DNA of 32,780 nucleotides. It comes from a virus. Below, one piece after another: positions 4,794 to 28,956 of this stretch. The notes beneath the pieces are model-generated. The model searched no databases. It was not told the origin of the DNA and was given only the letters and a program-made list of their open reading frames with translations. A program made the translations under genes and the position numbers. Location: the UHGV virus genome UHGV-0305798, one strand, 5' to 3'. Numbering within the stretch: the stretch's first letter is position 1; every line of letters starts with the position of its first letter.

Positions 4794-4808
4794 TTACCAC
4801 AACGGTAA
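4794..4808. promoter_or_regulatory. palindromic site TTACC-ACAAC-GGTAA (copy A)
   Basis: Read directly; a half-degenerate second copy (TTACC-ACGGT-GGTTA) follows immediately. Lies 18 bp upstream of the terminase small subunit ATG. Confidence 0.4.
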
Positions 4809-4825
4809 CAATTACCACGGTGGTT

Positions 4826-5422
4826 ATGATGCCTGCTGAACCTAAAACCTATAAACGCAAATCAACGCAATTTAAGCCACTAACAGCAATGCAGGAGGCT
4901 TATTGCCAGTCATACATCAAAACGCCTGAAAACCAGACTCAGGCAGCGATTAACGCAGGATTCTCCCCAAATACAGCGGCAGTTAAAGCCAGTGTCATGA
5001 TGCGCGATGAACGCATTCAAAAACGGATTGCCGAGTTGATGGAGGAGCGCAACAAACGAATGCGCGTCAGTGCTGATTACGTTCTCATGCGCCTGGTGGA
5101 GATCGACCAGATGGACGTGATCGACATCCTCAACGACGATGGGAGCCTTAAACCAATCCGCGAGTGGCCGAAAATCTGGCGCACTACGCTTAGCGGCTTT
5201 GATCTGTCATCGACCATCATGAACATGAACGAGGATTCGATAGAGACAATCCTCAAAAAAATTAAATGGCCTGACAAGGTGAAGAACCTTGAGCTGATTG
5301 GTAAGCATGTTGATGTCAACGCGTTCAAAGAACGCCTGGATGTTAATGTGAATGTGACAATTGCTGATCGCATAGCGGCAGCCAGGAAGAGACTGAAAGA
5401 ACGTCAGGATGGCAATCAGTGA
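4826..5422 (+). CDS. terminase small subunit
   Basis: Contains the TerS-type helix-turn-helix block (LTAMQEAYCQSY...QTQAAINAGFSPNTAAVKAS...IQKRIAELMEER). Start placed at ATG 4826 after GGTGG; the ORF-track start 4748 would add an implausible hydrophobic extension. Overlaps the large subunit start. Confidence 0.8.
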   Translation: MMPAEPKTYKRKSTQFKPLTAMQEAYCQSYIKTPENQTQAAINAGFSPNTAAVKASVMMRDERIQKRIAELMEERNKRMRVSADYVLMRLVEIDQMDVIDILNDDGSLKPIREWPKIWRTTLSGFDLSSTIMNMNEDSIETILKKIKWPDKVKNLELIGKHVDVNAFKERLDVNVNVTIADRIAAARKRLKERQDGNQ

Positions 5423-6984: not shown

Positions 6985-7407
6985 TTAGAAGGTTATTTTA
7001 TCGAATGCGGCGTTGATTGCCTTGGCGTCCTGCTCAGCACCAACCACATCAAGTAAAGATCTTTTACTAAGCACTTCAGCCAGGCATTGTAACTTCATGT
7101 TGTATAAGTTTTCGCGCATGTAATCATCATCACTTTTTTCTTTGGCGTATACAGCGCGAGAAATATCAAACACATTGCCTTTTTCCATTTCAGTTTTCTG
7201 CGCTGAAATCCAGTCATGGCAAGTAACTCCTATTCCATGGTCATCGCTAAGCGTTAACCCGGCAAGTCGCTCACCTGGAATTGCTTCACAAAGCATTTCA
7301 TTTCCTGCAAAAACACCATAAAAAATTGAGTCATCACCCTGAACAATGCGTACATATTTGCACGGCCATTCATTTAGATATTTAGCTAGCATGTCGGCTG
7401 TTTTCAT
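6985..7407 (-). CDS. hypothetical protein (140 aa), reverse-strand insert between terminase and portal
   Basis: ATG at 7407 preceded by AAGGTGAG; clean ORF; looks AT-richer than flanking genes by eye; no family recognised. Confidence 0.6.
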   Translation of the reverse strand: MKTADMLAKYLNEWPCKYVRIVQGDDSIFYGVFAGNEMLCEAIPGERLAGLTLSDDHGIGVTCHDWISAQKTEMEKGNVFDISRAVYAKEKSDDDYMRENLYNMKLQCLAEVLSKRSLLDVVGAEQDAKAINAAFDKITF

Positions 7408-7572: not shown

Positions 7573-7649
7573 TGGCGTGGCATGCAGGATTCGAACCTGC
7601 GACCAACCGCTTAGAAGGCGGTTGCTCTGTCCGACTGAGCTAATGCCAC
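7573..7649 (-). tRNA. tRNA-Arg (anticodon UCU)
   Basis: Minus-strand sequence GTGGCATTAGCTCAGTCGGACAGAGCAACCGCCTTCTAAGCGGTTGGTCGCAGGTTCGAATCCTGCATGCCACGCCA folds as a cloverleaf: 7-bp acceptor stem, D arm, anticodon stem ACCGC/GCGGT with loop CTTCTAA, T loop TTCGAAT, encoded CCA end. Confidence 0.85.
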
Positions 7650-7971: not shown

Positions 7972-7986
7972 TTACCTGAAAGGTAA
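7972..7986. promoter_or_regulatory. palindromic site TTACC-TGAAA-GGTAA (copy B)
   Basis: Read directly; about 90 bp upstream of the small ORF and portal operon; 17-mer TTACCTGAAAGGTAATA is identical to copy E. Confidence 0.4.
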
Positions 7987-16976: not shown

Positions 16977-19723
16977 TGCCTGTTGTTCCTACTACATCCG
17001 GACGCCAGGTGCAAAGTCGTGGTGTGCAAACCGGTGGTTTTCAGACCTTCGATGTTCCTCAAGCAGGTCAGGTGCTGGCGAATGTCGCAGATCAGTATGC
17101 GGTGGCATATGGTGAAGCTAGGCAGAAAGCGAATGTTGCTATGGCCCAGGAGGCGTTACTGCAATTTAACCAATTTGCAGATGACCAGATTAACAACCCT
17201 GAAAATGGGCTGATTTCTAAACAGGGTAAAAACGCTCTTGGTCAGAGTGACGCTGTTATGAAAAATATGCAGGAAAGGGCTCAGGCATTATTAGGCTCAA
17301 TTCCTGAAAGTGAGGAAAGGAATAAATTATCCTTTCAACTCCAGCAGTCTATGCAGTCTTATTACAATCAGGCACGTCGATATGAAGTTGGGCAGTTTCA
17401 GCAATTCCAAGATCAAACGTATTTGTCAGGAAATGCATTGGCTGTCACTCAGTCTGCGGGGCTATATAGCGATAACCAAGCATTTGTCGATTTAGCCAAG
17501 CAGCGATTTGAATCTATTGATCAATACGCTGATGCGCATGGGCTTCCTGATGAGTGGCGTGTTCAGCAGAAAACTCAGCTCAAGGAACAAATGGGGCAGC
17601 AAGCATGGATAGGAAATATCGCTCAAAAATACAACGAGTTTCTTCAGGTTAATGGAGAGCCAGGGGATCTTGATGGTGTGAGTCGTGCAATATCACATGG
17701 TAATTCATTGGATGCTCGTGGTTTACGTAATAATAACCCTGGTAATATTGAAGCGAGCAAATCTAACCCGTGGGAAGGTCAGATCGGTAGTGATGGACGT
17801 TTTGCAACGTTTGCTACCCCTGAGCATGGAATCCGCGCGTTGGGTAAAAATATGTTGTCTTACCAGCGTCAAGGCTATGACACCGTTAGCGAGATTGTTA
17901 ATCGCTATGCTCCGGCTAGTGATGGTAATAATACTGATGCTTATATTAGGGCATTGTGTAGTGAGCTTGGTGTTGGGGAGAATGATCAGCTTGATATCTC
18001 TAACCCAAAGACACTAGCTGCTTTATGTGCTGGGATTATTAAACACGAAAATGGCAGTATGCCTTATAGCACCGAACAGCTTGAAACTGGTATCTCGGCA
18101 GCCCTTGGTCTAACTAACCTTGATTCACCTAAGCGTTATACGGGCAATGCGGCATTTGACGCTATGAGCCCTCAAATGCAAATACAGGCATTGAGGCAGG
18201 CTAATGAGCTGAGAAATCAGTACCGCCAGCAGTATGCGGACCAGCTTAGCACCGTAGTTAAAGATGCATATTCAGCCCTTGATGAAGGATTGAAACCTGA
18301 GAAGTTACCTTCTGAGGACGATTTTATCCGGGCCAATGGTCCGCGCATTGGCGCTATGAAGTGGAAGGATATGCAGGCGCAGATACAATATGGAGGTGTC
18401 ATTGGTGCCGCTAAAGACCTCACTCCAGAAGGACGACAAGACATTCTTGAACGTTTACGTCCACAGGATCCAAATGCTCCTGGATTTGCAGCTAACCAGC
18501 AACGCTGGGAGAAAATGCAGGCCAAATTTAAAGAGATGGATAGGGAGTGGGAGATTCAGCAGGGAAGAAACAGGTTCGTGTCTTCAATGCAAAATAACTT
18601 CCCGCTGGACCCTAACGACAAAAACAATCAGGCAGCGGTAGACCGTTATTTCGCGCAGGATATCGCGCCTTCGTTTTCCATATCTGATCCGCAGAGCATC
18701 AATACACTGGTCACCGTCACAACTAAAAGCGGCATGATACCAACTCAGGTTAAAACAATGCTTAACAGTGGAGCAACATCAAGAGATCCTGCGCTGGTTG
18801 TCCCGATGGCAAAATTCTACGGTCAGTTATTCGATAATAATCCGGCGGCAGCGGCAACACTTGATAAAAGTACGATGGCATTTTACGGCAAGGTTTACGA
18901 TTATTCCCGCGCTGGCGTGCCGGAGGATAAGGCTGTTGATATGGCTTACAGCCAGGTGTTCCAACAGGATGACCGAATGAAACAGATGCTTTCCACTGCC
19001 ATGCGAGACAAAAAATATGTCGCGGCGAGGGCAACTGCTGCACAAAATAACGCCAGCAGTCTGACTTCCTTTGGTTCGTGGTCTCCGGATATTACCGATC
19101 CAGGAAAATCAAATGCGGCCTATCAGCGAGATTACCAGACAATTTACGATGCTAACTTTGTACAGACAGGTGGCGATGCAGAACAGGCTGAGAAAATGAC
19201 CAATGCCATGATCAGAACCACCTGGGGAGTTTCTACAGTTAATGGCAAAGCAGAGGTTATGAAGTATGCACCTGAGGCATTGTACGGAGTAAATAATGGT
19301 GCTGGTAACTGGATACAGGGGCAGTGGGAGCAGGAAAAACGCGAGCTTAAATCAAAATCCTTTGGCGGTCCTCGCAGTGATACGGACTTAATACTTGTTT
19401 CTGATGGCCTTACGGCAAGGGATAGGAGTTATGCTGTTATGGTTTTACAGCCTGACGCAAACGGAGCGATAGAACCGAGAAATTATATTGGAGAAAATGG
19501 TCTCCCTGTTCGTTTCAAGCCGGATCAGCTGACATCTCCAATGTACAGGCAAACCATTCAGTTCCAGCAACAGCGTGTTGATGAGGCTAGAGTGCGGAGA
19601 GAAGGCAATCCGCTGCCGCAGTTCAGCAATAAAGATGGATATACTCCTCCAGATCTGACCAAACCATTCGGTTATGGTTCAGCCAATTACCTTCCGAGCA
19701 ATATATACGCAGGGGGCAAATAA
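16976..19723 (+). CDS. internal core protein C-like (gp15 position), 915 aa
   Basis: Large ORF in the gp15 slot with tight overlaps to neighbours; contains a distinctive block (RGLRNNNPGNIEASKSNPWEGQ...VNRYAP) that may be a catalytic or cell-wall-interacting domain. Confidence 0.6.
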   Translation: MPVVPTTSGRQVQSRGVQTGGFQTFDVPQAGQVLANVADQYAVAYGEARQKANVAMAQEALLQFNQFADDQINNPENGLISKQGKNALGQSDAVMKNMQERAQALLGSIPESEERNKLSFQLQQSMQSYYNQARRYEVGQFQQFQDQTYLSGNALAVTQSAGLYSDNQAFVDLAKQRFESIDQYADAHGLPDEWRVQQKTQLKEQMGQQAWIGNIAQKYNEFLQVNGEPGDLDGVSRAISHGNSLDARGLRNNNPGNIEASKSNPWEGQIGSDGRFATFATPEHGIRALGKNMLSYQRQGYDTVSEIVNRYAPASDGNNTDAYIRALCSELGVGENDQLDISNPKTLAALCAGIIKHENGSMPYSTEQLETGISAALGLTNLDSPKRYTGNAAFDAMSPQMQIQALRQANELRNQYRQQYADQLSTVVKDAYSALDEGLKPEKLPSEDDFIRANGPRIGAMKWKDMQAQIQYGGVIGAAKDLTPEGRQDILERLRPQDPNAPGFAANQQRWEKMQAKFKEMDREWEIQQGRNRFVSSMQNNFPLDPNDKNNQAAVDRYFAQDIAPSFSISDPQSINTLVTVTTKSGMIPTQVKTMLNSGATSRDPALVVPMAKFYGQLFDNNPAAAATLDKSTMAFYGKVYDYSRAGVPEDKAVDMAYSQVFQQDDRMKQMLSTAMRDKKYVAARATAAQNNASSLTSFGSWSPDITDPGKSNAAYQRDYQTIYDANFVQTGGDAEQAEKMTNAMIRTTWGVSTVNGKAEVMKYAPEALYGVNNGAGNWIQGQWEQEKRELKSKSFGGPRSDTDLILVSDGLTARDRSYAVMVLQPDANGAIEPRNYIGENGLPVRFKPDQLTSPMYRQTIQFQQQRVDEARVRREGNPLPQFSNKDGYTPPDLTKPFGYGSANYLPSNIYAGGK

Positions 19724-22700
19724 TGCCGATATATGAACAGGATCCTAAAGAGTTGCTTGGCGAGGATATTCAGCAAATAGCAGCACCTGATGACAGTAAT
19801 TTCTATATGGAAACACCTTCTTTGCTTTCTGCTGTGAACCCATTTACCAGTGAGCAACGCGTTCAAAGGTCTAGACAAGCAGCATTTCGTATAGATAACA
19901 CGCTGGGTAGCTTTATTGCCAGTGCTCCTTTCAGTCAGTTTGACAGGGTTGAAGGATATAACCCATTTGATAACGATGCAGCAGATATTAAAGGCTATGA
20001 AGATTTTGCAGATTCGTTTATCAACTCCGGTTCGCATGAAGAAACAATGGCAATTAAACATCGAATCGATAAGCAAAGAACAGATAGAGAATATCTATCT
20101 GAAATGGGTGGTGCTGGTACTATTTCAAGCTTAGCAATGGGAATGATAGACCCGGTTAATGTGGCTGCAATGTTCATCCCTGTAGGGGCGGTAGCGCGTG
20201 GAGGAAGTATTGCTGAGACGGCAGGGCGTTTTGCCCTGGCGAATGCTGCTGGTGGGGGAGTATCAGAAGCCGCATTACAGGCCACTCAGGAAGCTCGCTC
20301 ACCGATGGAGAGCGTATCGAACGTTGTTGTTGATGCTCTCGTTGGTGGGATCCTTGGTGCTGGTGCACAGCTACTTGCTGGACCTAGCGCGCGCGAGGCA
20401 GTGGTTAACTCAGTAGGTAATCATTTGCGAGGTATGGATTCTCCTCAAAGCATTGGTGCAGCTCAGGTTTTCAATACCACACTCGATCAGGAACAGCTCG
20501 CTGGACTTGGACTTGCTAACAAAACGTTGAGTGTCACTCCTGCTGGCCGCTTGGCGCAATCACCATCTCTTGTCTCCCGTCAGATTAACCAGCAGCTTGC
20601 CGAAAATAACTATTTCTTCGCCAAAAATGATGAGGGGTTGGCTACGTTTACGGCAGTCGAGACTAAGATTAAGCAATACGACGCCATGCTTTATAAGCAG
20701 ATGGAAGCTACTCGTGATGCTTACCAGCAGTACAGCAAATCTGTCAGCGCCCGCGGCGTGAAGAGGATGAACTTTATTGATTTCAATGAAGCTGTTGGCA
20801 TGGCTATGCGCCGTGGTGATCAGAGTGATATTCCTGAGGTTTCACAAGCAGCCGCCAGAATCCGCCCCATTTTTGAGACCACAAAAGCCCGTATGCAGGA
20901 ATTGGGGATCCTTCCTGAGGATATCGATGTCGTGACGGCGAAGAGTTATCTTCCCCGCATTTATAAGTTCGATAAGATACTTTCCGACCGCACTGAATTC
21001 AGAGGGCGAATTGCCAACTGGATACAAGGGATTAGTGCCAAAGGTGCTGACAAAGCAGGTCAGCGAATTGAAAAGATAAATTCATTGCTAAAAACTGCAG
21101 AGGAATCAGCACCGCGCGCTGATGCTCTCGCTAGTGAAATCGCTGAAGCGGAGAAATGGTCTGGTAAAAAAATTCTACTCATGGAAGAACTGGATAAACG
21201 AAATAAGCTTATATCTCAGGAGACTGACACACAGGCGCGTCTTACAAGAATAGAAAAAGAGTTGGCCGAGACTTCATCAGAAAAACTTCAGGCAAGAATG
21301 ATGAAAGAAAGCTCTGACCTTAAAACACGCCTTGATGATATAGCGCAGGCAAAGAGTGAGCTTCCTGTCTATCAGCGCCATATGGAGTTGCTGGATAATC
21401 CACGGAAATATCGTTCTGAGCTTCGCCGACTGCAAAAACGGGCAAATTCAACCACAAGGCTGAATGCAAGCCGCGAGCGAGCACTGAAGCAGATGGAGCC
21501 TCTATCCCGAGAGGAAGCAGAGGACGCTGCTGACGAGATCGTGAATAAAATAATAGGCGCACCTTCCGGGCTTGTACCAGCCGATATTATCCCAGAGAGA
21601 CTCGTTGGTCGGGCTGGTTTCACTAAAAGCAGAACGCTGCTTATTCCTGATGAGCGTATAGAAGATTTTCTTGAATCAGATGTTAACTACATCATGGAAA
21701 GTTATCTCCGGCAGGTGGCACCAGAAATTGAGCTGACTGCGCAGTTTGGCCGTAAAGATATGGGGGAGCAAATCCGTCAGGTTAGTGAGGAATATACCCG
21801 GCTAATAAAAGAGGCTAAAACACCTAAACGACGTGCAGTTCTTGAGAAGCAACGGGAGGCTGATATTAGGGATATTACGGCTATGCGTGATCGACTGCTT
21901 GGTACTTACGGTGCACCTCAAGATCCACGCAGTTTCTTTGTTCGTGCCGGGCGAGTTGCTAGGAATATTAACTTCCTCCGTTTGCTTGGTGGAATGACTG
22001 TCTCCGCTGCAACTGATCTGATGCGACCGATGATGCAGCATGGCCTGAGAAAATCTCTCGGACCAATGGTAAGCATGCTTAAAAATATGGACTCAGTAAA
22101 AATTGCAACCAGGGATTTGCGAGAAATGGCAGTTGGGCTTGATTATGTCCTGTCTACGCGTACAAAGGCTATAGCGGATCTTACTGACCCCTATAGCCGG
22201 AGAAGCGCCGCTGAGCGAGGTCTGAACTGGATGACGCAGAAATTCGGTAACTGGACGCTGATGAATCAGTGGAACAGCGCACTTAAATCATGGTCTGGGA
22301 TGATAGTGCAGTCGAGGATACTTGACGCGGCTCGCCAAGTTTCTGCTGGTGGCACGCTCTCCAAAAGTGAAATGCGGAAGATGGCACAGGTCGGCATCAA
22401 TGAAGATGTTCTGCGCCGAATCGGGGAGCAATTCGGGAAGCACGGAGAGGATATGGACGGGCTGTTAACCGGGCATAGTCATCTGTGGGATGACCGTTTC
22501 GCTAGAGAGATTTTCCAGTCTGCAGTGCTGAAAGATGTAGACTCAGTGATTGTAACGCCTGGCGTAGGTGATACACCGCTGTTTTTTAGTAAAGAAGGCT
22601 GGAAGATGATCACGCAGTTCAAAACGTTTATCTTCGCACAGCATAACAGGGTGCTGGTATCTGGTATCCAGCAGGGCGATGCTGCATTCTATCTTGGTGC

Positions 22701-23112
22701 GCTTGGCACGATTGCGCTTGGCTCAATGGTCTATATGATGAAACAGAAGTTAAGCGGTCGCGATATCGACTACAGCTGGAATAACCTTGTGAAAGAGGGG
22801 ATCGACCGGGGCGGAATGCTTGGCTGGCTCTCTGAGCCGCTGAATACCGTTGAGAACATAAGCGGCGGTAGGTTTGGTCTTGGCGCGATGTTTGGTGCGC
22901 CTCCGGTATCAAGGTTTCAGAGTCGTAATGCTATTGGTGCTTTACTTGGTCCTACCTTTGATCTTGGCGGTGATGCCGCGACGGTTGCAAATGGTGTACT
23001 TAACGGAGAATTTGACAGCCAGCAAACCCACGCTGTCCGTAAAATGCTACCTTTTCAGAATCTGTGGGCGATATCACCATTACTAAATAAAGTTGAAGAG
23101 CAGATGAAATAG
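19723..23112 (+). CDS. internal core/ejection protein D-like (gp16 position), 1129 aa
   Basis: Largest ORF in the module, in the gp16 slot; long charged coiled-coil centre and Gly/Ala-rich hydrophobic segments. No transglycosylase motif recognised. Confidence 0.6.
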   Translation: MPIYEQDPKELLGEDIQQIAAPDDSNFYMETPSLLSAVNPFTSEQRVQRSRQAAFRIDNTLGSFIASAPFSQFDRVEGYNPFDNDAADIKGYEDFADSFINSGSHEETMAIKHRIDKQRTDREYLSEMGGAGTISSLAMGMIDPVNVAAMFIPVGAVARGGSIAETAGRFALANAAGGGVSEAALQATQEARSPMESVSNVVVDALVGGILGAGAQLLAGPSAREAVVNSVGNHLRGMDSPQSIGAAQVFNTTLDQEQLAGLGLANKTLSVTPAGRLAQSPSLVSRQINQQLAENNYFFAKNDEGLATFTAVETKIKQYDAMLYKQMEATRDAYQQYSKSVSARGVKRMNFIDFNEAVGMAMRRGDQSDIPEVSQAAARIRPIFETTKARMQELGILPEDIDVVTAKSYLPRIYKFDKILSDRTEFRGRIANWIQGISAKGADKAGQRIEKINSLLKTAEESAPRADALASEIAEAEKWSGKKILLMEELDKRNKLISQETDTQARLTRIEKELAETSSEKLQARMMKESSDLKTRLDDIAQAKSELPVYQRHMELLDNPRKYRSELRRLQKRANSTTRLNASRERALKQMEPLSREEAEDAADEIVNKIIGAPSGLVPADIIPERLVGRAGFTKSRTLLIPDERIEDFLESDVNYIMESYLRQVAPEIELTAQFGRKDMGEQIRQVSEEYTRLIKEAKTPKRRAVLEKQREADIRDITAMRDRLLGTYGAPQDPRSFFVRAGRVARNINFLRLLGGMTVSAATDLMRPMMQHGLRKSLGPMVSMLKNMDSVKIATRDLREMAVGLDYVLSTRTKAIADLTDPYSRRSAAERGLNWMTQKFGNWTLMNQWNSALKSWSGMIVQSRILDAARQVSAGGTLSKSEMRKMAQVGINEDVLRRIGEQFGKHGEDMDGLLTGHSHLWDDRFAREIFQSAVLKDVDSVIVTPGVGDTPLFFSKEGWKMITQFKTFIFAQHNRVLVSGIQQGDAAFYLGALGTIALGSMVYMMKQKLSGRDIDYSWNNLVKEGIDRGGMLGWLSEPLNTVENISGGRFGLGAMFGAPPVSRFQSRNAIGALLGPTFDLGGDAATVANGVLNGEFDSQQTHAVRKMLPFQNLWAISPLLNKVEEQMK

Positions 23113-23113
23113 G

Positions 23114-23965
23114 ATGAAAAAAATAAATTTGTTTTTTGGCATAGTGCTTTCAATAGTCTCTGTAAATCCTACAGCTGCCAGTTCATTGCAATGCAATAAG
23201 GATAACTTTGATGCATGCAAAACGTGCGAACAATTATCAAAGGCTATCGACTTAAAAGAACCTAATCGTGGCGATTACTATAGAGGGGCTTTATGGAATG
23301 GGCTTTACGCCTCTTATGTAATTAATTGCCCTGTGGTTGCAGAGAAGTTACTGAGCCATGGTGCTATACCATCATATGGCGGATATATGGGGTCTATGGG
23401 GGCGGTTCTGACAGGAAAATGGCCTCATAACAATGAATCAATAAATCTTTCATGGGCAGATTTGCTTATAAAACATGGATTTGATGTTAATAGGCATACG
23501 GGGAATTATAAATCAGCTACTGAAGTATGGGCTATAGATAAAAAACAGATTGAATATAAGTCAGTTTTTGACAAGTTAATTCAATCCAGCGAAGTAAAAC
23601 CACTCGATCCTTCAAGAAATTTAGAATGGTGTGCGTCTGAAGGGTATCGCTCAGTTGTCGTTTATTCCCTTAACTCATGTATAGAAAATGCTATAAAACG
23701 TTTGGATGACGGTGTTTCTTCAGCGTCTGATATTTCATCAGCAGCCGTAAATTCCTGTACTAGCGATGTAGAAAATTTCAATAAGCATTTGGCATGCAAA
23801 GCAGCTGTTAAAGAAAACTCTGATAAAGAGAGAAGCAACGTTTACCAGTTATTAACCAGTGATAGTCAAATGAATAAAAATGTTATTGATATGCTGAAGG
23901 AAAGAAATATTGAAACGGTTCTTGAATTTAGAGCTGAAAATCGATCAGCGAAAACTGCACAGTGA
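23114..23965 (+). CDS. AT-rich secreted protein (283 aa), accessory gene
   Basis: Sec-type signal peptide (MKKINLFFGIVLSIVSVNPTAAS), several Cys, and visibly lower GC than flanking genes (by eye); followed by a strong terminator. Confidence 0.6.
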   Translation: MKKINLFFGIVLSIVSVNPTAASSLQCNKDNFDACKTCEQLSKAIDLKEPNRGDYYRGALWNGLYASYVINCPVVAEKLLSHGAIPSYGGYMGSMGAVLTGKWPHNNESINLSWADLLIKHGFDVNRHTGNYKSATEVWAIDKKQIEYKSVFDKLIQSSEVKPLDPSRNLEWCASEGYRSVVVYSLNSCIENAIKRLDDGVSSASDISSAAVNSCTSDVENFNKHLACKAAVKENSDKERSNVYQLLTSDSQMNKNVIDMLKERNIETVLEFRAENRSAKTAQ

Positions 23966-23971
23966 TCAAAC

Positions 23972-23997
23972 AGGCCGCTTTCGCGGCCTTGTTTTTA
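23972..23997 (+). terminator. rho-independent terminator after the secreted-protein gene
   Basis: GGCCGC-tttc-GCGGCC hairpin followed by TGTTTTT. Confidence 0.55.
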
Positions 23998-24156
23998 ACG
24001 AATGCCACCGCCGCCCGGACGGGAATCCGCAGAACGCCCACCGCAGCGGGAGCCGTCAGCGGCAGTATCGCTGTCGTGCTGACAACGACCGGCAAAGGCC
24101 TGAGTTGAAGCTACCAGAGACAACAAAACGAACAGTGCAGCAAATGCTTTTTTCAT
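23995..24156 (-). CDS. small secreted peptide (53 aa), putative
   Basis: Minus-strand ATG at 24156 gives MKKAFAALFVLLSLVASTQAFA (signal peptide) then a Gly/Arg/Asp-rich mature region with two Cys. Weak RBS; the longer ORF-track start looks spurious. Confidence 0.35.
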   Translation of the reverse strand: MKKAFAALFVLLSLVASTQAFAGRCQHDSDTAADGSRCGGRSADSRPGGGGIR

Positions 24157-24228
24157 TGTGAAATTTCCATCTATAAGCCACCTCAATGTGGCGTCAATGA
24201 GTGTAGCACTGACTTTTGTTTCGTCCAC

Positions 24229-24249
24229 AAAAAAGCCCGCGCTGCGGGC
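24229..24249 (-). terminator. rho-independent terminator (minus strand) after the 210-aa gene
   Basis: Minus-strand GCCCGC-agc-GCGGGC followed by TTTTTT, 5 bp past the stop codon. Confidence 0.5.
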
Positions 24250-24254
24250 TTCTA

Positions 24255-24887
24255 TTAATGCAGTTTATCTTTGCTTATAACCAGTAGTCTGTGGGTATGC
24301 ACATCTTTATCACTGCCCCAACAGAAATCAGCCCACTGGCTATAGAAATCATCCCATGATGTCATGAAGCTAAGAGGTCTATCTTCTTCAGAGCCATCTG
24401 AAACGTATACATTATATCCTGGGGTGTTTATAGCCCAAGAAATCATTCTTTCCCAGAATCTTCTCCCATCGATTGTTTGTTGCTCATCAGATACAACGAT
24501 CGCATATTGCTCTAGGAAGAACTGAAAAAAAATCTGAGGCAAACCATGAACAGCACGGTCATGAATAACATTAGGCGTACGCCATACCATGATCTGCGTA
24601 CATGTTCTTTTGGCTTCGACGATATCTTCCCGAAAGATTAACTTAACCGCATACACCGTTTCTGGAGTATCGCTGGTAGTAATCATTCTGTAATGATCGC
24701 CATTACAAGATTTTACAAGGCGATAACCATAAGGTGTTGTGAATCCCGGAAGAACGAAATCAACCACACCTTTCGCTAAGTAGCTTTCGGTGTGACTAGT
24801 GTTCTTCTCAGACATGTTCAGTTTTCTATCGAAATCTGCTTCTGGGATAATGTATGGCATCGCTTTTCTTGTTGTATTTGTTCTCAT
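24255..24887 (-). CDS. hypothetical protein (210 aa), reverse-strand accessory gene
   Basis: ATG at 24887 preceded by GGGAGG at 5 nt; own terminator downstream and palindromic site upstream; AT-rich by eye; no family recognised. Confidence 0.6.
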   Translation of the reverse strand: MRTNTTRKAMPYIIPEADFDRKLNMSEKNTSHTESYLAKGVVDFVLPGFTTPYGYRLVKSCNGDHYRMITTSDTPETVYAVKLIFREDIVEAKRTCTQIMVWRTPNVIHDRAVHGLPQIFFQFFLEQYAIVVSDEQQTIDGRRFWERMISWAINTPGYNVYVSDGSEEDRPLSFMTSWDDFYSQWADFCWGSDKDVHTHRLLVISKDKLH

Positions 24888-24946
24888 TTCGTCCTCCCAT
24901 GTTTGGCTACAGGACGCGTTTTGAAGGGAAGATTAAAAATGCTTTC

Positions 24947-24961
24947 TTACCCTTGAGGTAA
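24947..24961. promoter_or_regulatory. palindromic site TTACC-CTTGA-GGTAA (copy C)
   Basis: Read directly; about 60 bp upstream of the 210-aa gene start. Confidence 0.4.
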
Positions 24962-24997
24962 TAGTACGCTATTCACCCCCAGTCTGCAATCTGTACA

Positions 24998-25025
24998 GAA
25001 TTATTTAAAGGCACATCCCTGTGCC
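24998..25025 (-). terminator. possible terminator (minus strand) after antirepressor gene
   Basis: Minus-strand GGCAC-agggat-GTGCC followed by TTTAAATAATT; moderate. Confidence 0.35.
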
Positions 25026-25033
25026 GCCGCCCG

Positions 25034-25726
25034 TCAGAAGAACCCTGCCTTGTCGTTGATGTACTCCGCGTGGGTCTGGATATCACGCAGGCATTTGCTC
25101 ACACCAACGATGTAGCAGAACATGGTGGTCAGCTCCGCCGCCGCGCCCGATACGTCGTGCCCGTCTTCCTGTAACTGGTTCAGCAGATTCATCAGCAGTG
25201 AGTTCTCCGTCAGGCCGAGAACACCAGACGGAGAATGAATCAGGCTGCGGTAGCCGGGCTTCAGCGGGGCGCTGTAGGTTTTGTTCTCTATCTTCATTGC
25301 CTGCATCACTGCTGATGCTGTGGCGTTTGCAACCTGGTCGGCAACCATCTTTATGCGTTCTTCCTGCGGGAGCGAGTTTTTAATGTAACTTCCGGTGCGG
25401 CGGATCTGAGGAAGAACCTCACCTGTAACCCATTCAAGAAATCTGAATGCTCTCGTTCCCTCAGTCATTGCCTCTTTGCAACGCAGAATAAGGATGTAGA
25501 GACCTGATTCTGAAACGATGGATAGTTCTTGTATTCCACCAGGGGTCTGTATTGAATACAGCCCCTTTTTGTTCCAGCCTTTTTTATCAAGTTTTCTCGC
25601 TTGTGTAACATCAATATTCAAAGCATTGCACACATCTTTGGTGACAAACCAAGGTTCTCCGTCAATCATGAACATACGGATCTGGCAGGATGACTCAAAG
25701 GAAAAGATGGAAGGTTTGGTATTCAT
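25034..25726 (-). CDS. Bro-N domain antirepressor-like protein
   Basis: N-terminus (MNTKPSIFSFESSCQIRMFMIDGEPWFVTKDVCNALNI) matches the BRO-N signature of phage antirepressors; start at 25726 after AAAGGTGA (the ORF-track start 25771 adds 15 aa). C-terminal 70 aa are paralogous to the small gene at 26040..26297. Confidence 0.75.
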   Translation of the reverse strand: MNTKPSIFSFESSCQIRMFMIDGEPWFVTKDVCNALNIDVTQARKLDKKGWNKKGLYSIQTPGGIQELSIVSESGLYILILRCKEAMTEGTRAFRFLEWVTGEVLPQIRRTGSYIKNSLPQEERIKMVADQVANATASAVMQAMKIENKTYSAPLKPGYRSLIHSPSGVLGLTENSLLMNLLNQLQEDGHDVSGAAAELTTMFCYIVGVSKCLRDIQTHAEYINDKAGFF

Positions 25727-25880
25727 GGCGATCACCTTTGTAGTTAGGTTAATCACCACCGCTGAGACCAATCAGATGGTGGTGAACTGTGCAGAGTTGG
25801 TCTTACCGGCTACAAAGGAACCCGGCGCACCTTTCGGTGCCCCCACACAGCCCACCATAGAATAGGTGCGCTTTACACAT

Positions 25881-25906
25881 AAAAAAACCGCTTATGCGGC
25901 ATATGT
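25881..25906 (-). terminator. possible terminator (minus strand) downstream of the small LexA-box gene
   Basis: Minus-strand GCCGC-ataa-GCGGU followed by seven U; short stem, so moderate. Confidence 0.35.
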
Positions 25907-25993
25907 GCCTCTGTAGTAATCCGGGAGACCAATCCCGGCACTGGATTTTGCCAGTGCCCGATTACTATGGCACAAGAGGAGTGCGATGTAAAT

Positions 25994-26008
25994 TTACCGC
26001 AAAGGTAA
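25994..26008. promoter_or_regulatory. palindromic site TTACC-GCAAA-GGTAA (copy D)
   Basis: Read directly; extended palindrome ATTTACC-GCAAA-GGTAAAT; lies between the antirepressor and the small paralogous gene. Confidence 0.4.
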
Positions 26009-26039: not shown

Positions 26040-26297
26040 TTATCTGGTTTGTTTTCGTAATTGTTCGGCACAATAGTCGAGATGTGTTTGCAGATCCTGC
26101 ATAGACATCTGTGAGCTGGTGACGTAGTTAATCAGTGCAGTCAGTTCGGCAAGTGGGCCATCGACATTAAATCCATCCTTATCGAGATCCCGGAGTAATT
26201 TCATCAAGTGCGATCCCTCCACCAGTGACCTGACGCCTCCCGGCGTGTGAATCCTTTCGGTAAATCCGTCTTCCAGTGGATAGTGATACTGCTGCAT
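26040..26297 (-). CDS. small antirepressor-like protein (Tum-like, about 85 aa)
   Basis: About 40% identical by eye to the C-terminal domain of the adjacent antirepressor (shared IH-P-GV, AELT, DxQTHxxY motifs). ATG at 26297 has GGAG at 9 nt; alternative ATG at 26312. A LexA box lies immediately upstream. Confidence 0.6.
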   Translation of the reverse strand: MQQYHYPLEDGFTERIHTPGGVRSLVEGSHLMKLLRDLDKDGFNVDGPLAELTALINYVTSSQMSMQDLQTHLDYCAEQLRKQTR

Positions 26298-26317
26298 CTT
26301 AATCTTCTCCATGCAAT

Positions 26318-26374: not shown

Positions 26375-26389
26375 TTACCTGAAAGGTAA
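26375..26389. promoter_or_regulatory. palindromic site TTACC-TGAAA-GGTAA (copy E)
   Basis: Read directly; about 105 bp upstream of the tailspike ATG and about 40 bp beyond the LexA box; 17-mer identical to copy B. Confidence 0.4.
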
Positions 26390-26493: not shown

Positions 26494-28956
26494 ATGACGG
26501 TCTCAACCGAAGTTGACCACAACGAATACACAGGTAACGGCGTTACGACATCATTTCCGTATACCTTCCGTATTTTCAAAAAATCCGACCTGGTTGTTCA
26601 GGTGTCTGACCTTAACGGTAACGTTACAAAACTAGTGCTGGATGCTGGTTATACGGTAACAGGGGCGGGAACTTATAGTGGCGGTGCAGTGGTTCTTCCG
26701 TCGCCGCTTGCTGCTGGCTGGCGAATCACGATAGAGCGTGTGCTTGATGTGGTGCAGGAGACTGATCTTCGCAATCAGGGAAAATTTTTCCCCGAAGTTC
26801 ATGAGGATGCATTTGACTACCTGACGATGCTGATCCAGCGATGTTTTGGGTGGTTCAGACGTGCATTGATGAAACCATCTTTGCTTGCAAAATATTACGA
26901 TGCAAAGCAAAACAGAATATCTAACCTTGCAGATCCATCATTTGAGCAGGACGCTGTAAATAATCGCTCAATGCGCAATTATGTCGATGCTGCAATCGCC
27001 GGGGTTGTTGGTGGTTTTGGTTGGTTTATTCAGTATGGTTCTGGAGCGGTATACAGAACACTCCAAGATAAGATGCGTGATGGTGTCAGCATTAAGGATT
27101 TTGGAGCTCAAAATGGAATCTTAAATGATAACAAGGAGTCTTTTACAAAATCATCACATTCGTTTAGCAGTGTTTTTGTTCCGGAAGGGGTATTCAATAC
27201 ATCTTTAGTTTCTCTTTCACGTTGTGGCTTGTACGGAACAGGTGGGGGAACGATAAAACAGTATGACAGAGATGGTAATCATCTGGTTTTTAACATGCCC
27301 GATGGTGGCATGCTTAGTACGCTAACAATTATGGGAAATAAATCAGATGATAGTGTGCAGGGACACCAGGTGTCATTTTCAGGTGGCCATGATGTATCGG
27401 TTAAAAATATCAGATTTACAAATACGCGAGGACCAGGATTTAGCTTGATCGCTTATCCGAATAATGGTATTCCGTCAGGTTACATTGTTAGAGATATAAG
27501 AGGAGAGTATTTAGGGTTCGCAAATAATAAAAAAGCAGGTTGTGTGCTTTTTGATTCATCGCAAAACACGCTAATTGATGGTGTGATAGCCAGAAATTAT
27601 CCTCAGTTTGGTGCAGTGGAACTTAAAACAGCAGCAAAATATAACATTGTCAGCAATGTTATTGGTGAAGAGTGTCAGCACGTTGTTTACAATGGAACTG
27701 AGACGGAAACTGCCCCAACGAATAATATCATTAGCAGTGTAATGGCTAACAACCCAAAATACGCCGCAGTAGTTGTTGGCAAGGGGACTGGTAACCTGAT
27801 TTCGGATGTGCTGGTTGATTACTCTGAATCGGACGCAACGCAGGCGCACGGCGTCACCGTTCAGGGAAATAATAATATTGCCAGTAATATTCTAATGACT
27901 GGGTGTGACGGGAAAAATGAATCAGGAGATCTGCAGAAATCTACAACCATTCGTTTCTTAAATGCTGCAGGCAGTAATTATGCGTCAATATTCCCCATGT
28001 ATAGTTCTTCTGGCGTGGTTACCTTCGAGGAAGGGTGTATCAGGAACTTTGTTGAAATTAAACATCCGGGTGATAGAAATAATATTCTGAGTTCTGCATC
28101 AGCGGTGACTGGTATTTCCAGTATAGACGGCACTACAAATAGCAATGTTGTTCACGTCCCTGCGCTTGGTCAGTACATTGGGACTATGTCAGGGCGTTTT
28201 GAATGGTGGGTTAAATATTTTAACCTTGCTAACCAGACGCTTGTTTCTGCAGATAAATTCAGAATGCTTGCTGAAGGAGATGTATCTCTGGCTGTGGGAG
28301 GCGGTATAAGGTCGCAATTGAAATTATTCAATAGTGATAATACTAAAGGCACTATGTCGCTAATAAATGGAAATATTCGAATATCTACTGGAAATTCAGA
28401 ATATATACAGTTTTCTGATTCAGCCATGACACCATCGACAACGAATACTTATTCTCTTGGGTTGGCTGGTCGTGCATGGTCGGGGGGATTTACCCAGTCA
28501 GCGTTTACGGTGCTGTCCGATGCGCGTTTCAAGACTGCTCCAGAGGTTATTGATGAGAAAATACTGGACGCATGGGAAAGAGTGGAATGGGTTTCATACC
28601 AGTACCTTGACAGGATCGAAGTGAAAGGTAAAGACGGAGCAAGATGGCACTTTGGTGCAGTTGCGCAGCATGTTATCAGTGTATTTCAGAATGAAGGCAT
28701 AGATGTGTCACGACTGGCATTTATCTGTTATGACAAGTGGAATGAGACCCCGGCAGAATACAGGGATGTGACGGAAGAAGAGCATTCTGCAGGAGTTTAC
28801 CCACTTATACAGACAAAGGTTCTGGTACGCGAAGCCGTCGAGGCTGGTGAATGTTACGGTATCCGTTATGAAGAGGCTCTGATTCTGGAATCTGCGATGA
28901 TGAGACGCAGGGTTAAAAAGCTGGAAGAGCAAGTTTTGCAATTAACAGGGAATTGA
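26494..28956 (+). CDS. tailspike/tail fiber with T7 gp17-like N-terminal domain and C-terminal intramolecular chaperone domain
   Basis: N-terminal 110 aa follow the T7 gp17 particle-binding pattern. Central region is Gly/Asn/Thr-rich with repetitive beta-strand-like segments, consistent with a beta-helix. C-terminal block (SDARFKTAPEVIDEKILDAWERVEWVSYQY...WHFGAVAQHV...EALILESAMMRR) matches the self-cleaving chaperone domain (peptidase S74-like) of endosialidase-type tailspikes. Confidence 0.85.
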   Translation: MTVSTEVDHNEYTGNGVTTSFPYTFRIFKKSDLVVQVSDLNGNVTKLVLDAGYTVTGAGTYSGGAVVLPSPLAAGWRITIERVLDVVQETDLRNQGKFFPEVHEDAFDYLTMLIQRCFGWFRRALMKPSLLAKYYDAKQNRISNLADPSFEQDAVNNRSMRNYVDAAIAGVVGGFGWFIQYGSGAVYRTLQDKMRDGVSIKDFGAQNGILNDNKESFTKSSHSFSSVFVPEGVFNTSLVSLSRCGLYGTGGGTIKQYDRDGNHLVFNMPDGGMLSTLTIMGNKSDDSVQGHQVSFSGGHDVSVKNIRFTNTRGPGFSLIAYPNNGIPSGYIVRDIRGEYLGFANNKKAGCVLFDSSQNTLIDGVIARNYPQFGAVELKTAAKYNIVSNVIGEECQHVVYNGTETETAPTNNIISSVMANNPKYAAVVVGKGTGNLISDVLVDYSESDATQAHGVTVQGNNNIASNILMTGCDGKNESGDLQKSTTIRFLNAAGSNYASIFPMYSSSGVVTFEEGCIRNFVEIKHPGDRNNILSSASAVTGISSIDGTTNSNVVHVPALGQYIGTMSGRFEWWVKYFNLANQTLVSADKFRMLAEGDVSLAVGGGIRSQLKLFNSDNTKGTMSLINGNIRISTGNSEYIQFSDSAMTPSTTNTYSLGLAGRAWSGGFTQSAFTVLSDARFKTAPEVIDEKILDAWERVEWVSYQYLDRIEVKGKDGARWHFGAVAQHVISVFQNEGIDVSRLAFICYDKWNETPAEYRDVTEEEHSAGVYPLIQTKVLVREAVEAGECYGIRYEEALILESAMMRRRVKKLEEQVLQLTGN

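Follow-up and report, generated by a model that had tools for sequence, protein, structure and literature searches.

Gene content of the region

We analyzed a 32,780-nt stretch of viral DNA (UHGV virus genome UHGV-0305798; hereafter, the window), which derives from an epsilon15/phiV10-like prophage of E. coli, based on PHROG matches and the layout of the region. The prophage repressor gene lies outside the window. Positions 23114 to 24887 hold three genes, encoding proteins of 283, 53, and 210 aa, which follow the gene for a large internal virion/ejection protein (Table 1). On their other side are a Bro-N antirepressor gene (ant) with its leader and a gp19-like gene, a conserved core gene of the leftward arm. 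A mechanical ORF call extends the smallest of the three genes to 77 aa from a GTG at 24228. We rejected this version, as its start lies inside the U-run of the upstream terminator and homologues keep an MKK start.

Table 1. Features of the locus, with positions in the window
Feature	Position	Strand	Basis or description
1129-aa internal virion/ejection protein gene (context)	19723-23112	+	phrog_342, "internal virion protein with endolysin domain," E 2.7e-235
283-aa putatively exported protein gene	23114-23965	+	ORF; final cistron of late operon
Bidirectional intrinsic terminator	23972-23989	both	Ends late operon (+) and peptide transcript (-); -16.5 and -17.5 kcal/mol, z -4.2 and -3.3 in the two directions
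53-aa peptide precursor gene	23995-24156	-	phrog_14503; ORF from ATG
Peptide gene promoter-proximal region	24178-24205	-	By eye, alignment of 7 relatives
210-aa gene intrinsic terminator	24229-24251	-	GCCCGCAGCGCGGGC then six U; -16.7 kcal/mol, z -3.4
210-aa stand-alone cytoplasmic protein gene	24255-24887	-	phrog_1349; putative GNAT-like fold
210-aa gene promoter and predicted operator	24947-24989	-	Hexamers by eye, palindrome statistics
Bro-N antirepressor gene (context)	25034-25771	-	Pfam Bro-N 2.1e-13, phrog_130 Ant; likely ATG near 25726
P1-type immI leader of ant	25775-26008	-	Rfam, promoter scan, palindrome scan
C4 antisense RNA	25775-25862	-	Rfam 78.6 bits (gathering score 45)
isrK-like RNA	25881-25957	-	Rfam 74.7 bits (gathering score 50)
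a1/b1 target sites	25918-25970	-	Rfam 39.9 bits, below gathering score 46.7
Predicted repressor operator	25994-26008	-	Adjoins promoter-like site
90-aa epsilon15 gp19-like gene (context)	26040-26312	-	phrog_450; conserved core gene, leftward arm
Predicted repressor operator	26375-26389		Divergent region between gp19-like and tailspike genes

All three proteins have full-length PHROG matches (phrog_6118 for the 283-aa protein, phrog_14503/3117 for the 53-aa protein, and phrog_1349 for the 210-aa protein), each to a family of unknown function, and database searches returned 22, 57, and 63 homologues, respectively. These matches overturn a sequence-only reading that had placed the genes in no family and had called the 210-aa gene an orphan. 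Identical copies of each protein are encoded on at least 1000 contigs. Neither Pfam nor NCBIfam had a match for the three proteins, PADLOC-DB (2023 release) gave none for the three genes at E ≤ 1, and an Rfam scan placed no known RNA inside the three-gene interval. In the literature, neither the protein accessions nor the PHROG numbers led to a paper on the three proteins.

The features that the sequence-only reading had listed (three ORFs, low GC, signal peptides, terminators, and a TTACC-N5-GGTAA site) are all present. Its view that the genes form an island interrupting the virion operon has to be replaced: the 283-aa gene is the final cistron of that operon, and the remainder is the usual epsilon15-like variable region, which precedes the separately promoted tailspike gene and is carried by all epsilon15-like phages. 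The three genes are separate units. They are cargo in a known variable region and belong to uncharacterized families.

The 283-aa gene at the end of the late operon

A single base separates the stop codon of the 1129-aa gene from the ATG of the 283-aa gene. No promoter-like site was found upstream, by inspection of the sequence or by promoter scan, and the gene is directly followed by a terminator. The same order is seen in E. coli, Klebsiella, Serratia, Morganella, and Providencia, where the 283-aa gene follows an ejection gene of ~1130 aa on the same strand, with a gap of 1 to 31 nt. This synteny in five genera indicates a long-established gene rather than a recently gained moron.

At 0.370, the GC content of the gene is markedly lower than the 0.48 of the window, as had been judged by eye, and its GC3 of 0.289 is the lowest among the 22 genes measured. 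The horizontal acquisition once suggested by this composition is not a recent one, because a Morganella copy with 40% identity has the same low GC in the same place. Divergence from Morganella is in step with the flanks, where identity is 56% for the ejection protein and 36% for the gp19-like protein.

The 283-aa protein is predicted to comprise a signal peptide, an ankyrin-repeat-like domain (residues ~60 to 165), and a helical C-terminal domain (residues 170 to 283). The putative signal peptide and eight invariant cysteines occur in all 16 aligned homologues. Read by eye, the N termini of both the 283-aa and the 53-aa proteins follow the pattern MKK, hydrophobic stretch, A-x-A, which is kept in all homologues and agrees with the signal peptide previously assigned to the 283-aa protein. 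Conserved cysteine pairs in the two proteins fit an oxidizing compartment, and neither has an L-[AS]-[GA]-C lipobox, on which ground a lipoprotein reading of the peptide was rejected. The 283-aa protein likely contains four disulfides. Its ankyrin-like fold comes from a structure model with a pTM of 0.53. Ankyrin profiles gave no Pfam match for the 283-aa protein at E ≤ 0.1 or for 16 family members at E ≤ 5, and a PDB sequence search gave only weak matches to DARPins (E about 1).

As the final cistron of the late operon, the gene would be expressed during lytic growth, and the Sec-type signal peptide suggests that the product is exported. Ankyrin repeats are protein-binding modules. Because of this property, and of the constant co-inheritance with the ~1130-aa ejection protein, it is possible, if doubtful, that the protein binds a periplasmic partner linked to DNA entry or envelope breaching. 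It might then block the ejection machinery of a second phage or guard the producing cell or its progeny. Against this proposal, the benefit of a periplasmic exclusion factor made late is not clear. Exported ankyrin proteins of Gram-negative bacteria include those conferring periplasmic immunity to type VI phospholipase effectors, as well as AnkB of Pseudomonas aeruginosa. The 283-aa protein would resemble these in its signal peptide and ankyrin-like domain, but it is phage-borne, is encoded in a late operon, and has an extra cysteine-rich helical domain.

A short peptide gene under purifying selection

The terminators claimed for the two reverse-strand genes are both in place, as hairpins downstream of the peptide gene and the 210-aa gene (Table 1). 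The former also ends the late operon and is shared with phiV10, where a 48-bp stretch at the annotated terminator is 95.8% identical.

Predicted cleavage of the 53-aa precursor between AFA and G would yield a 31-aa periplasmic peptide with one disulfide loop (Cys25-Cys38). The mature peptide has the invariant core CQHDSDTAADGSRCGGRSADSRPGG. The family spans many Enterobacterales, and many of its 57 homologues are named "transmembrane anchored protein" by NCBI. Across homologues, the mature part is invariant and the signal peptide variable. The mature core is under extreme purifying selection: between genera, 12 to 17 of 25 codons differ synonymously and 0 to 1 nonsynonymously. Such near-invariance points to a conserved target or ligand in the host envelope.

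Upstream of the gene, we read by eye a -10-like hexamer, TACACT (24205-24200; TACACT, TACAAT, TAAAAT, or TACGCT in seven relatives), and an inverted repeat, CCAC-N6-GTGG (24191-24178), which is kept in the seven relatives and takes the form CCGC..GCGG in Pectobacterium. The small ORF has no clear Shine-Dalgarno sequence, and a consensus scan found no promoter. The palindrome scan of the window found no TTACC-N5-GGTAA near the gene. Because the peptide gene is served by a separate promoter-like region that includes no repressor site, its product is the only one of the three that, judging by the sequence, could plausibly be made in the lysogen. PHROG places the family in its "moron" category.

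A predicted repressor operator at the promoter of the 210-aa gene

The TTACC-N5-GGTAA site reported upstream of the 210-aa gene is present as TTACCCTTGAGGTAA at 24947-24961. By eye, the promoter consists of a weak -35, TTGCAG (3 of 6 positions; 24989-24984), a 17-nt spacer, and a -10, TACTAT (24966-24961), which shares one base with the palindrome. The site conforms to the 15- to 17-bp palindrome (A)TTACC-N5-GGTAA(T) of the epsilon15-type predicted operator. Five exact and two one-mismatch copies of TTACC-N5-GGTAA occur in the window, compared with 0.58 expected, and none of 100 shuffles reached seven.

Exact copies number 8 in phiV10 and 11 in epsilon15, where they lie in the cI/cro, PL, terS, portal, ant, and tailspike promoter regions. 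Seven of the epsilon15 copies are annotated "protein_bind: repressor," an annotation that is itself a prediction. The copy between the gp19-like and tailspike genes has its epsilon15 equivalent at 19895-19911. The Morganella and Providencia loci do not have TTACC-N5-GGTAA, and a search of these two short sequences for an alternative repeated palindrome, as covariation of operator and repressor would predict, gave nothing clear.

Because the predicted repressor operator overlaps its promoter, the 210-aa gene is predicted to be silent in the lysogen; it would be switched on, together with ant and the late operons, at derepression or upon fresh infection. RNAalifold on a MAFFT alignment of the leaders of 210-aa homologues found no consensus hairpin. 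A candidate hairpin hiding the Shine-Dalgarno sequence in these leaders was discarded, as its pairing probabilities were no better than those of shuffled upstream sequence.

Fold and family of the 210-aa protein

The 63 homologues of the 210-aa protein share 37 to 100% identity with it, and a profile search found 913 representative clusters (at 50% identity) for the phrog_1349 family. The AF2 model (pLDDT 80) has a GNAT-like fold, with Foldseek matches to phage proteins of ~190 aa and to NAT_SF proteins. The most conserved motif of the family, SD-x-x-QT-x-x-G-x-x-FW (here Q137-T-I-D-G141-R-R), occupies the GNAT CoA-pyrophosphate position in the model, but its spacing differs from that of GNAT motif A (Q/R-x-x-G-x-G/A), and the family does not carry motif A. 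Acetyltransf Pfam models matched neither the 210-aa protein nor 37 family members at E ≤ 5. Whole-family alignments of the 283-aa and 210-aa proteins gave only scattered chance matches to Pfam at E ≤ 5, and PDB profile searches gave nothing meaningful.

Based on the GNAT-like fold of the model and a motif placed where GNAT enzymes bind the CoA pyrophosphate, we tentatively suggest, at odds short of even, that the protein is a cytoplasmic acyl-CoA-dependent modifier or acyl-CoA-binding regulator acting on a host or competitor target. The GNAT superfamily includes AcrVA5 and the toxins AtaT and TacT. A phage example is Rac of phiKMV (PMC7552054).

Some homologues of the 210-aa gene neighbor PIN/Phd toxin-antitoxin genes, and others are solitary chromosomal genes. 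One such solitary copy, in Xenorhabdus between ppc and metF, has a TATAAT-like promoter and lies in no phage. Tandem paralogues exist, and one distant relative is fused to an MqsA toxin-binding N-terminal domain.

The cargo slot and comparison with known systems

Immediately downstream of ant is a slot whose cargo is exchanged between phages, and here the 210-aa gene alone fills it. In relatives, the slot is taken by toxin pairs of the YafO family, by a DUF2335 pair, or by other genes, and the -10/operator arrangement is kept whatever the cargo (TL-2011b, IHE3034, EC.W1-9, ZX5, AR_0086, and phiv142-3). In phiv142-3, the same slot, with the same promoter and operator, holds orf10, which differs in encoding a 52-aa protein unrelated to the 210-aa protein; the phiv142-3 homologue of the 53-aa peptide is Orf11. 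orf10 is the sole gene of the slot with a published phenotype, in serum resistance and K1 capsule gene expression, and in the lysogen it is transcribed in serum from behind the same operator (PMC7724020). Thus, either repression is not absolute or serum partly induces the prophage. A paper on neaT (PMC3573123) was set aside, as it concerns a different prophage and a different gene.

The variable regions of epsilon15 (gp18-gp19) and phiV10 (p21-p24) occupy the same genome position, between the ejection and tailspike genes, with the same gp19-like gene and an ATTACC-N5-GGTAAT motif at equivalent promoters. However, epsilon15 has only gp18 and gp19 there, and phiV10 has genes for a 46-aa membrane protein and a Bro-N protein; the 283-aa, 53-aa, and 210-aa genes are missing from both. 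TL-2011b and AR_0086-type relatives also lack the 283-aa gene and, like epsilon15 and phiV10, have other small genes instead.

Next to the three genes is a P1-type immI, in which ant is preceded by C4 RNA and its target sites. P1/P7 immI comprises c4 antisense RNA, icd, and ant, with the C1-controlled Op51 and the periplasmic exclusion protein Sim nearby. The locus here shares with it the C4 RNA and a1/b1 sites upstream of ant and a predicted repressor operator at the promoter, but the antirepressor type differs and no icd was seen. The exported proteins may be likened to Sim by analogy. In P22 immI, sieA, mnt, arc, and ant lie between gene 16 and the tailspike gene 9. The present locus resembles this arrangement in having an antirepressor module and accessory genes between the ejection and tailspike genes of a temperate podovirus, and in Serratia prophages, P22-type ant, Arc, and sar RNA adjoin the 210-aa homologue. 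Unlike in P22, ant here is of the Bro-N type, under a P1-type C4 RNA and a predicted main repressor operator, and we found neither mnt nor arc nor a SieA-like membrane protein.

Interpretation of the locus

We propose that positions 23114 to 24887 are where the end of the virion/ejection-protein operon meets the leftward immI (c4-ant) arm, and that the three unrelated, real, and conserved genes found there each follow a different regulatory logic. We give this reading as a whole a probability of roughly 0.6. Several observations count against it: the low GC of the 283-aa gene is persistent, the ankyrin assignment is a model-based one with no counterpart among the Ank profiles of Pfam, and the solitary chromosomal copy of the 210-aa gene fits a host-beneficial role better than one in the lytic cycle.

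The three genes could instead form an island expressed in the lysogen for lysogenic conversion, superinfection exclusion, or anti-phage defense, as the sequence-only reading had favored. What stands of that claim is that the region is a true site of cargo exchange, with toxin pairs in relatives, and that the peptide, filed under "moron" and free of a repressor site, could be made in the lysogen. The effect of orf10 on serum resistance (PMC7724020) and the 210-aa homologues beside toxin-antitoxin genes or alone in chromosomes agree with it. The parts that concern the other two genes are not supported: the predicted operator overlaps the promoter of the 210-aa gene, the 283-aa gene is joined directly to the late operon and holds the same place in five genera, and PADLOC gave no match. 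The genes also assort independently, which counts against a single island; among 5426 genomes, 499 have part of the region (query 23000-25000), 93 have the 210-aa gene, and 106 have the 283-aa gene, but all three occur together in only 6. We consider this alternative unlikely.

It is improbable that the 210-aa protein acts on its own as a toxin or abortive-infection effector, such as a GNAT-type translation inhibitor, that is silenced by the repressor and released on induction or superinfection. The toxin pairs that otherwise occupy the slot under the same operator, and the relative fused to an MqsA domain, would suit such a role. However, the YafO pairs do have partner genes, and here there is no antitoxin-like partner of the kind found in type II modules: no ORF of at least 20 aa lies between the promoter and the 210-aa gene or before the terminator. 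The chromosomal solitary copies with constitutive-looking promoters argue against strong toxicity, and the tandem paralogues and the lack of a sequence match to known GNAT toxins also weigh against it.

Less probable again is that the 283-aa protein is a part of the virion or ejection apparatus, or its assembly factor, and not accessory at all. Its strict linkage to the ejection gene and its divergence in step with the flanks would be expected of such a part, but the Sec-type signal peptide, together with the eight invariant cysteines, suggests a periplasmic location in the producing cell, several relatives do without the gene, and its GC is strongly deviant. Finally, that any of the ORFs is spurious, as the poor start and promoter signals of the smallest might suggest, is scarcely credible and already refuted by conservation, given the extreme purifying selection on the peptide and the full-length homologues (37 to 89% identity) and confident fold models of the other two.

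Implications for temperate phages

As it stands, all that we describe is within expectation for temperate-phage accessory genes. We think it rather unlikely that at least one of the three families represents a new kind of phage factor, and there are three candidates. The 31-aa peptide, with a core that hardly varies between Escherichia and Pectobacterium, is a candidate for a lysogen-made factor acting on some conserved part of the envelope, which might serve to keep out other phages or to modify the surface of the cell. The phrog_1349 proteins are candidates for widespread GNAT-fold effectors that temperate phages have wired to the immunity repressor, firing at derepression as a counter-defense or host-takeover enzyme. 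The exported ankyrin-like protein is a candidate periplasmic partner or blocker of the ejection-protein conduit.

If our reading is true, a single cargo hot spot would hold opposite regulatory logics, one late, one triggered by derepression, and one possibly constitutive, and whether a gene is expressed in the lysogen could not be foretold just from its location in a "moron" region. The extreme conservation of the peptide and the strict linkage of the ankyrin-like protein to the ejection protein offer concrete handles. Because the three families are common and their functions unassigned, one experiment on any of them would provide an annotation for many genomes.

Prophage context and distribution of the three genes

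The three-gene interval is embedded among genes of an epsilon15/phiV10-like temperate podovirus of E. coli. Among them are genes for both terminase subunits (small and large), the portal and head, internal virion proteins (915 and 1129 aa), a Bro-N antirepressor (ant), and a tailspike that carries an S74 chaperone domain; lysis genes come next. We found the three ORFs where the sequence-only reading had placed them, and the small ORF encodes 53 aa from its ATG. A 77-aa mechanical version of this ORF was rejected, because its GTG start falls within the upstream terminator's U-run and is unsupported by homologues. The three genes had been described as orphans that could not be placed, yet each protein has a full-length match to a PHROG family of unknown function, and the exact protein sequence of each is present on at least 1000 public contigs.

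DNA matches to 22800-25000 came from Escherichia phages EC.W1-9, TL-2011b, phiv142-3, HEMP4, and ZX5, and the phiV10 match was confined to the terminator. Part of the 23000-25000 query is contained in 499 of 5426 complete E. coli genomes; six carry all three genes together, including the ST95-labelled strain ST95-32, IHE3034, and APEC O18. The genes assort independently among E. coli genomes, and they are not one system.

Elsewhere in the window, the stretch that separates the terminase genes from the portal operon contains a tRNA-Arg gene (anticodon TCT), and ZX5 is reported to have a tRNA in a similar position. This tRNA and the large terminase gene flank a reverse-strand 140-aa gene (phrog_4846, unknown function) of low GC (0.41; GC3, 0.36). 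This site looks like another cargo position, because phiV10 (p03) and epsilon15 (p50) have a reverse-strand gene in the equivalent place.

Features of the window discussed in the text
Feature	Position	Strand	Details
140-aa gene	6985-7407	-
tRNA-Arg gene	7573-7649	-
283-aa gene	23114-23965	+
53-aa peptide gene	23995-24156	-
210-aa gene	24255-24887	-
ant	25034-25771	-
gp19-like gene (90 aa)	26040-26312	-
Operator copy, exact	4794		Just before small terminase gene; one-mismatch copy adjoining at 4812 (pair 4794-4826)
Operator copy, exact	7972-7986		Before portal operon
Operator copy, exact	24947-24961		Before 210-aa gene
Operator copy, exact	25994-26008		Before c4-ant unit
Operator copy, exact	26375-26389		Between gp19-like gene and tailspike gene
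Operator copy, one mismatch	26607-26621		Inside start of tailspike gene
Hairpin terminator	23972-23989	both	-16.5 and -17.5 kcal/mol
Hairpin terminator	24229-24251	-	-16.7 kcal/mol, then six U
Inverted repeat CCAC-N6-GTGG	24178-24191		Just before peptide start codon
P1/P7-type C4 antisense RNA	25775-25862	-	Rfam, 78.6 bits; upstream of ant
isrK-like RNA	25881-25957	-	Rfam, 74.7 bits; upstream of ant
a1/b1 targets of C4	25918-25970	-	Rfam, 39.9 bits, below gathering score

A predicted repressor operator

The most informative feature of the region is the TTACC-N5-GGTAA palindrome that the sequence-only reading spotted upstream of the 210-aa gene, where we confirmed it as TTACCCTTGAGGTAA. The window holds five exact and two one-mismatch copies versus 0.58 expected; none of 100 shuffles reached seven, and it is by far the commonest repeated 5+5 palindrome in the window. 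In phiV10, eight exact copies occupy equivalent places as well as the repressor/cro intergenic region and the leftward early promoter. Epsilon15 has 11 exact copies, and its RefSeq record labels 7 of them "protein_bind: repressor, lysogeny." Because of these phiV10 positions and the epsilon15 annotation, we predict that the palindrome is the operator of the main prophage repressor.

Read by eye, the last T of a -10-like sequence is also the first T of the palindrome in three units (TACTAT, 210-aa gene; TATATT, ant; TGgTATTAT, terminase operon); the 210-aa gene has a weak -35. This shared T would put the operator on top of the transcription start region, where a repressing site is expected. The repressor appears to control the late operons directly, a prediction also made in the epsilon15 record. 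Promoter and operator are kept whatever the cargo of the slot downstream of ant, the position filled here by the 210-aa gene (TL-2011b, IHE3034, EC.W1-9, ZX5, AR_0086, and phiv142-3).

The leftward arm and its cargo

Reading leftward from 26493 to 23995, the order is gp19-like gene, ant, 210-aa gene, and peptide gene. The RNA elements upstream of ant make 25775-25970 a P1-style immI control circuit in an epsilon15-like podovirus. The small gp19-like protein (90 aa) and the antirepressor C terminus (~80 residues) hit the same PHROG families, phrog_450 and phrog_15539, so the gp19-like gene looks like a free-standing copy of the antirepressor C-terminal domain. In the IHE3034 prophage, whose tailspike is a K1 endosialidase, a YafO-family toxin pair separates ant from the gp19-like gene, a second position (comparison locus L020, 7646-8585); cargo can thus enter the leftward arm at more than one slot.

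Related prophages carry other cargo in the slot filled here by the 210-aa gene: YafO-family toxin pairs, a DUF2335 pair, a 284+95-aa pair, or phiv142-3 orf9-orf10. We found no partner ORF for the 210-aa gene, which is a single-gene unit. Homologues of ~210 aa occur across Enterobacterales (n = 63), with a conserved core (VWR ... SD-x-x-QT-x-x-G-x-x-FW), and all 57 tested family members fall in phrog_1349 (unknown function). A profile search of 1.84 billion representatives gave 913 matches at E <= 1e-3. Homologues adjoin P22-type ant, Arc, and sar modules within tail operons in Serratia prophages, form a lone insertion between ppc and metF in Xenorhabdus, neighbour a PIN/Phd pair within a secretion-system cluster, or stand in tandem as paralogues. 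Distant relatives are fused to an MqsA N-terminal domain or, weakly, to an SRA-like domain.

Serratia-type prophages (L004, L048, L053, L056, and L058) have a terminator-like hairpin and U-run in the leader of the homologue, between a promoter-like site and the start codon (for example, GCCGAAGC..GCTTCGGC then CTTCTTATC, about 30-60 nt ahead of the start). This arrangement suggests attenuation or read-through control in these phages.

The 283-aa gene

The three genes had been thought to interrupt the virion operon. Instead, the 283-aa gene is the last cistron of the late operon, because just one base separates its ATG from the 1129-aa stop codon, nothing promoter-like was found upstream, and a hairpin follows it, with the 48-bp stretch around 23972-23989 showing 95.8% identity to the annotated late-operon terminator of phiV10. 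This terminator and the one at 24229-24251, both proposed from sequence alone, fold well.

The low GC noted earlier was borne out (GC, 0.370; GC3, 0.289; window GC, 0.48), and this GC3 is the lowest among 22 genes measured in the window; the 210-aa gene has a GC of 0.408. The low GC had been taken to suggest horizontal acquisition, but it is no sign of a recent event in the 283-aa gene: the Morganella copy, only 40% identical, is equally low (0.354; flanks, 0.50 to 0.52). GC3 of this gene, for a putatively exported ankyrin-like protein, is ~0.3 in both E. coli and Morganella (prophage locus L009, 6001-6813; flanks, 0.44 to 0.55).

Homologues were returned from E. coli, Klebsiella, Serratia, Morganella, and Providencia (n = 22), all with an N-terminal signal sequence and eight invariant cysteines. 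In every context examined (five genera), its immediate upstream neighbour, on the same strand, is the gene for the ~1130-aa ejection protein. Flanking genes share 56% and 36% identity between Morganella and the window. Relatives with a different last ejection protein have other small genes in this place (epsilon15 gp18, phiV10 p21, and an AR_0086 126-aa gene). This strict position, flank-like divergence, and replacement elsewhere mark the gene as an old companion of one ejection-protein type, predicted to be made late and exported.

The 53-aa peptide

Peptide homologues (n = 57) were returned from E. coli, Shigella, Klebsiella, Citrobacter, Cronobacter, Franconibacter, Salmonella, Pectobacterium, and Dickeya. 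Their signal peptides are variable, and their mature core, CQHDSDTAADGSRCGGRSADSRPGG, hardly changes. Between genera, 12 to 17 of 25 core codons differ synonymously and 0 to 1 nonsynonymously; in the first 20 signal-peptide codons the two kinds are about equal. The ORF is a real, very strongly constrained gene. NCBI names many homologues "transmembrane anchored protein"; we saw no lipobox, and we predict not a membrane anchor but a soluble periplasmic peptide of 31 aa with a single disulfide loop.

Upstream, relatives keep a -10-like hexamer and the inverted repeat CCAC-N6-GTGG, which lies just before the start codon across genera (equivalents in comparison loci L079, L075, and L078). In Pectobacterium both arms are changed (CCGC..GCGG). 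The repeat could act as a 5' RNA hairpin or bind a protein. No repressor operator was found upstream of the gene in E. coli versions; in the Cronobacter version, the promoter spacer contains a TACC-N5-GGTA core.

Expression in the lysogen

The sequence-only reading had noted that prophage genes of this kind often serve lysogenic conversion, superinfection exclusion, or anti-phage defence. Given the operator at its promoter, the 210-aa gene is predicted to be silent there and on with ant and the late genes, and 283-aa gene expression would follow the late operon. Only the peptide gene, of the three, could be made from the repressed prophage. The slot gene of phiv142-3, orf10, lies behind the same operator as the 210-aa gene, and it ranked second for serum induction among the up-regulated prophage genes that were listed; serum resistance fell when it was deleted (PMC7724020). 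This case counts against a strict reading of operator silencing. The phiv142-3 ant, tail fibre, and endolysin genes also rose with orf10 (PMC7724020), and we infer that this joint rise looks like partial derepression.

Relation to known systems

We found no membership of the three protein families in any described defence, exclusion, or conversion family that could be tested here. The region has the variable-region layout of epsilon15-like phages, the immI regions of P22 and P1 are analogous to it, and its operator motif was already predicted in the epsilon15 annotation. We class the finding as accessory cargo in a known phage hot spot, with three uncharacterised protein families, and we put at about one in four the chance that one of these families hides a truly new mechanism.
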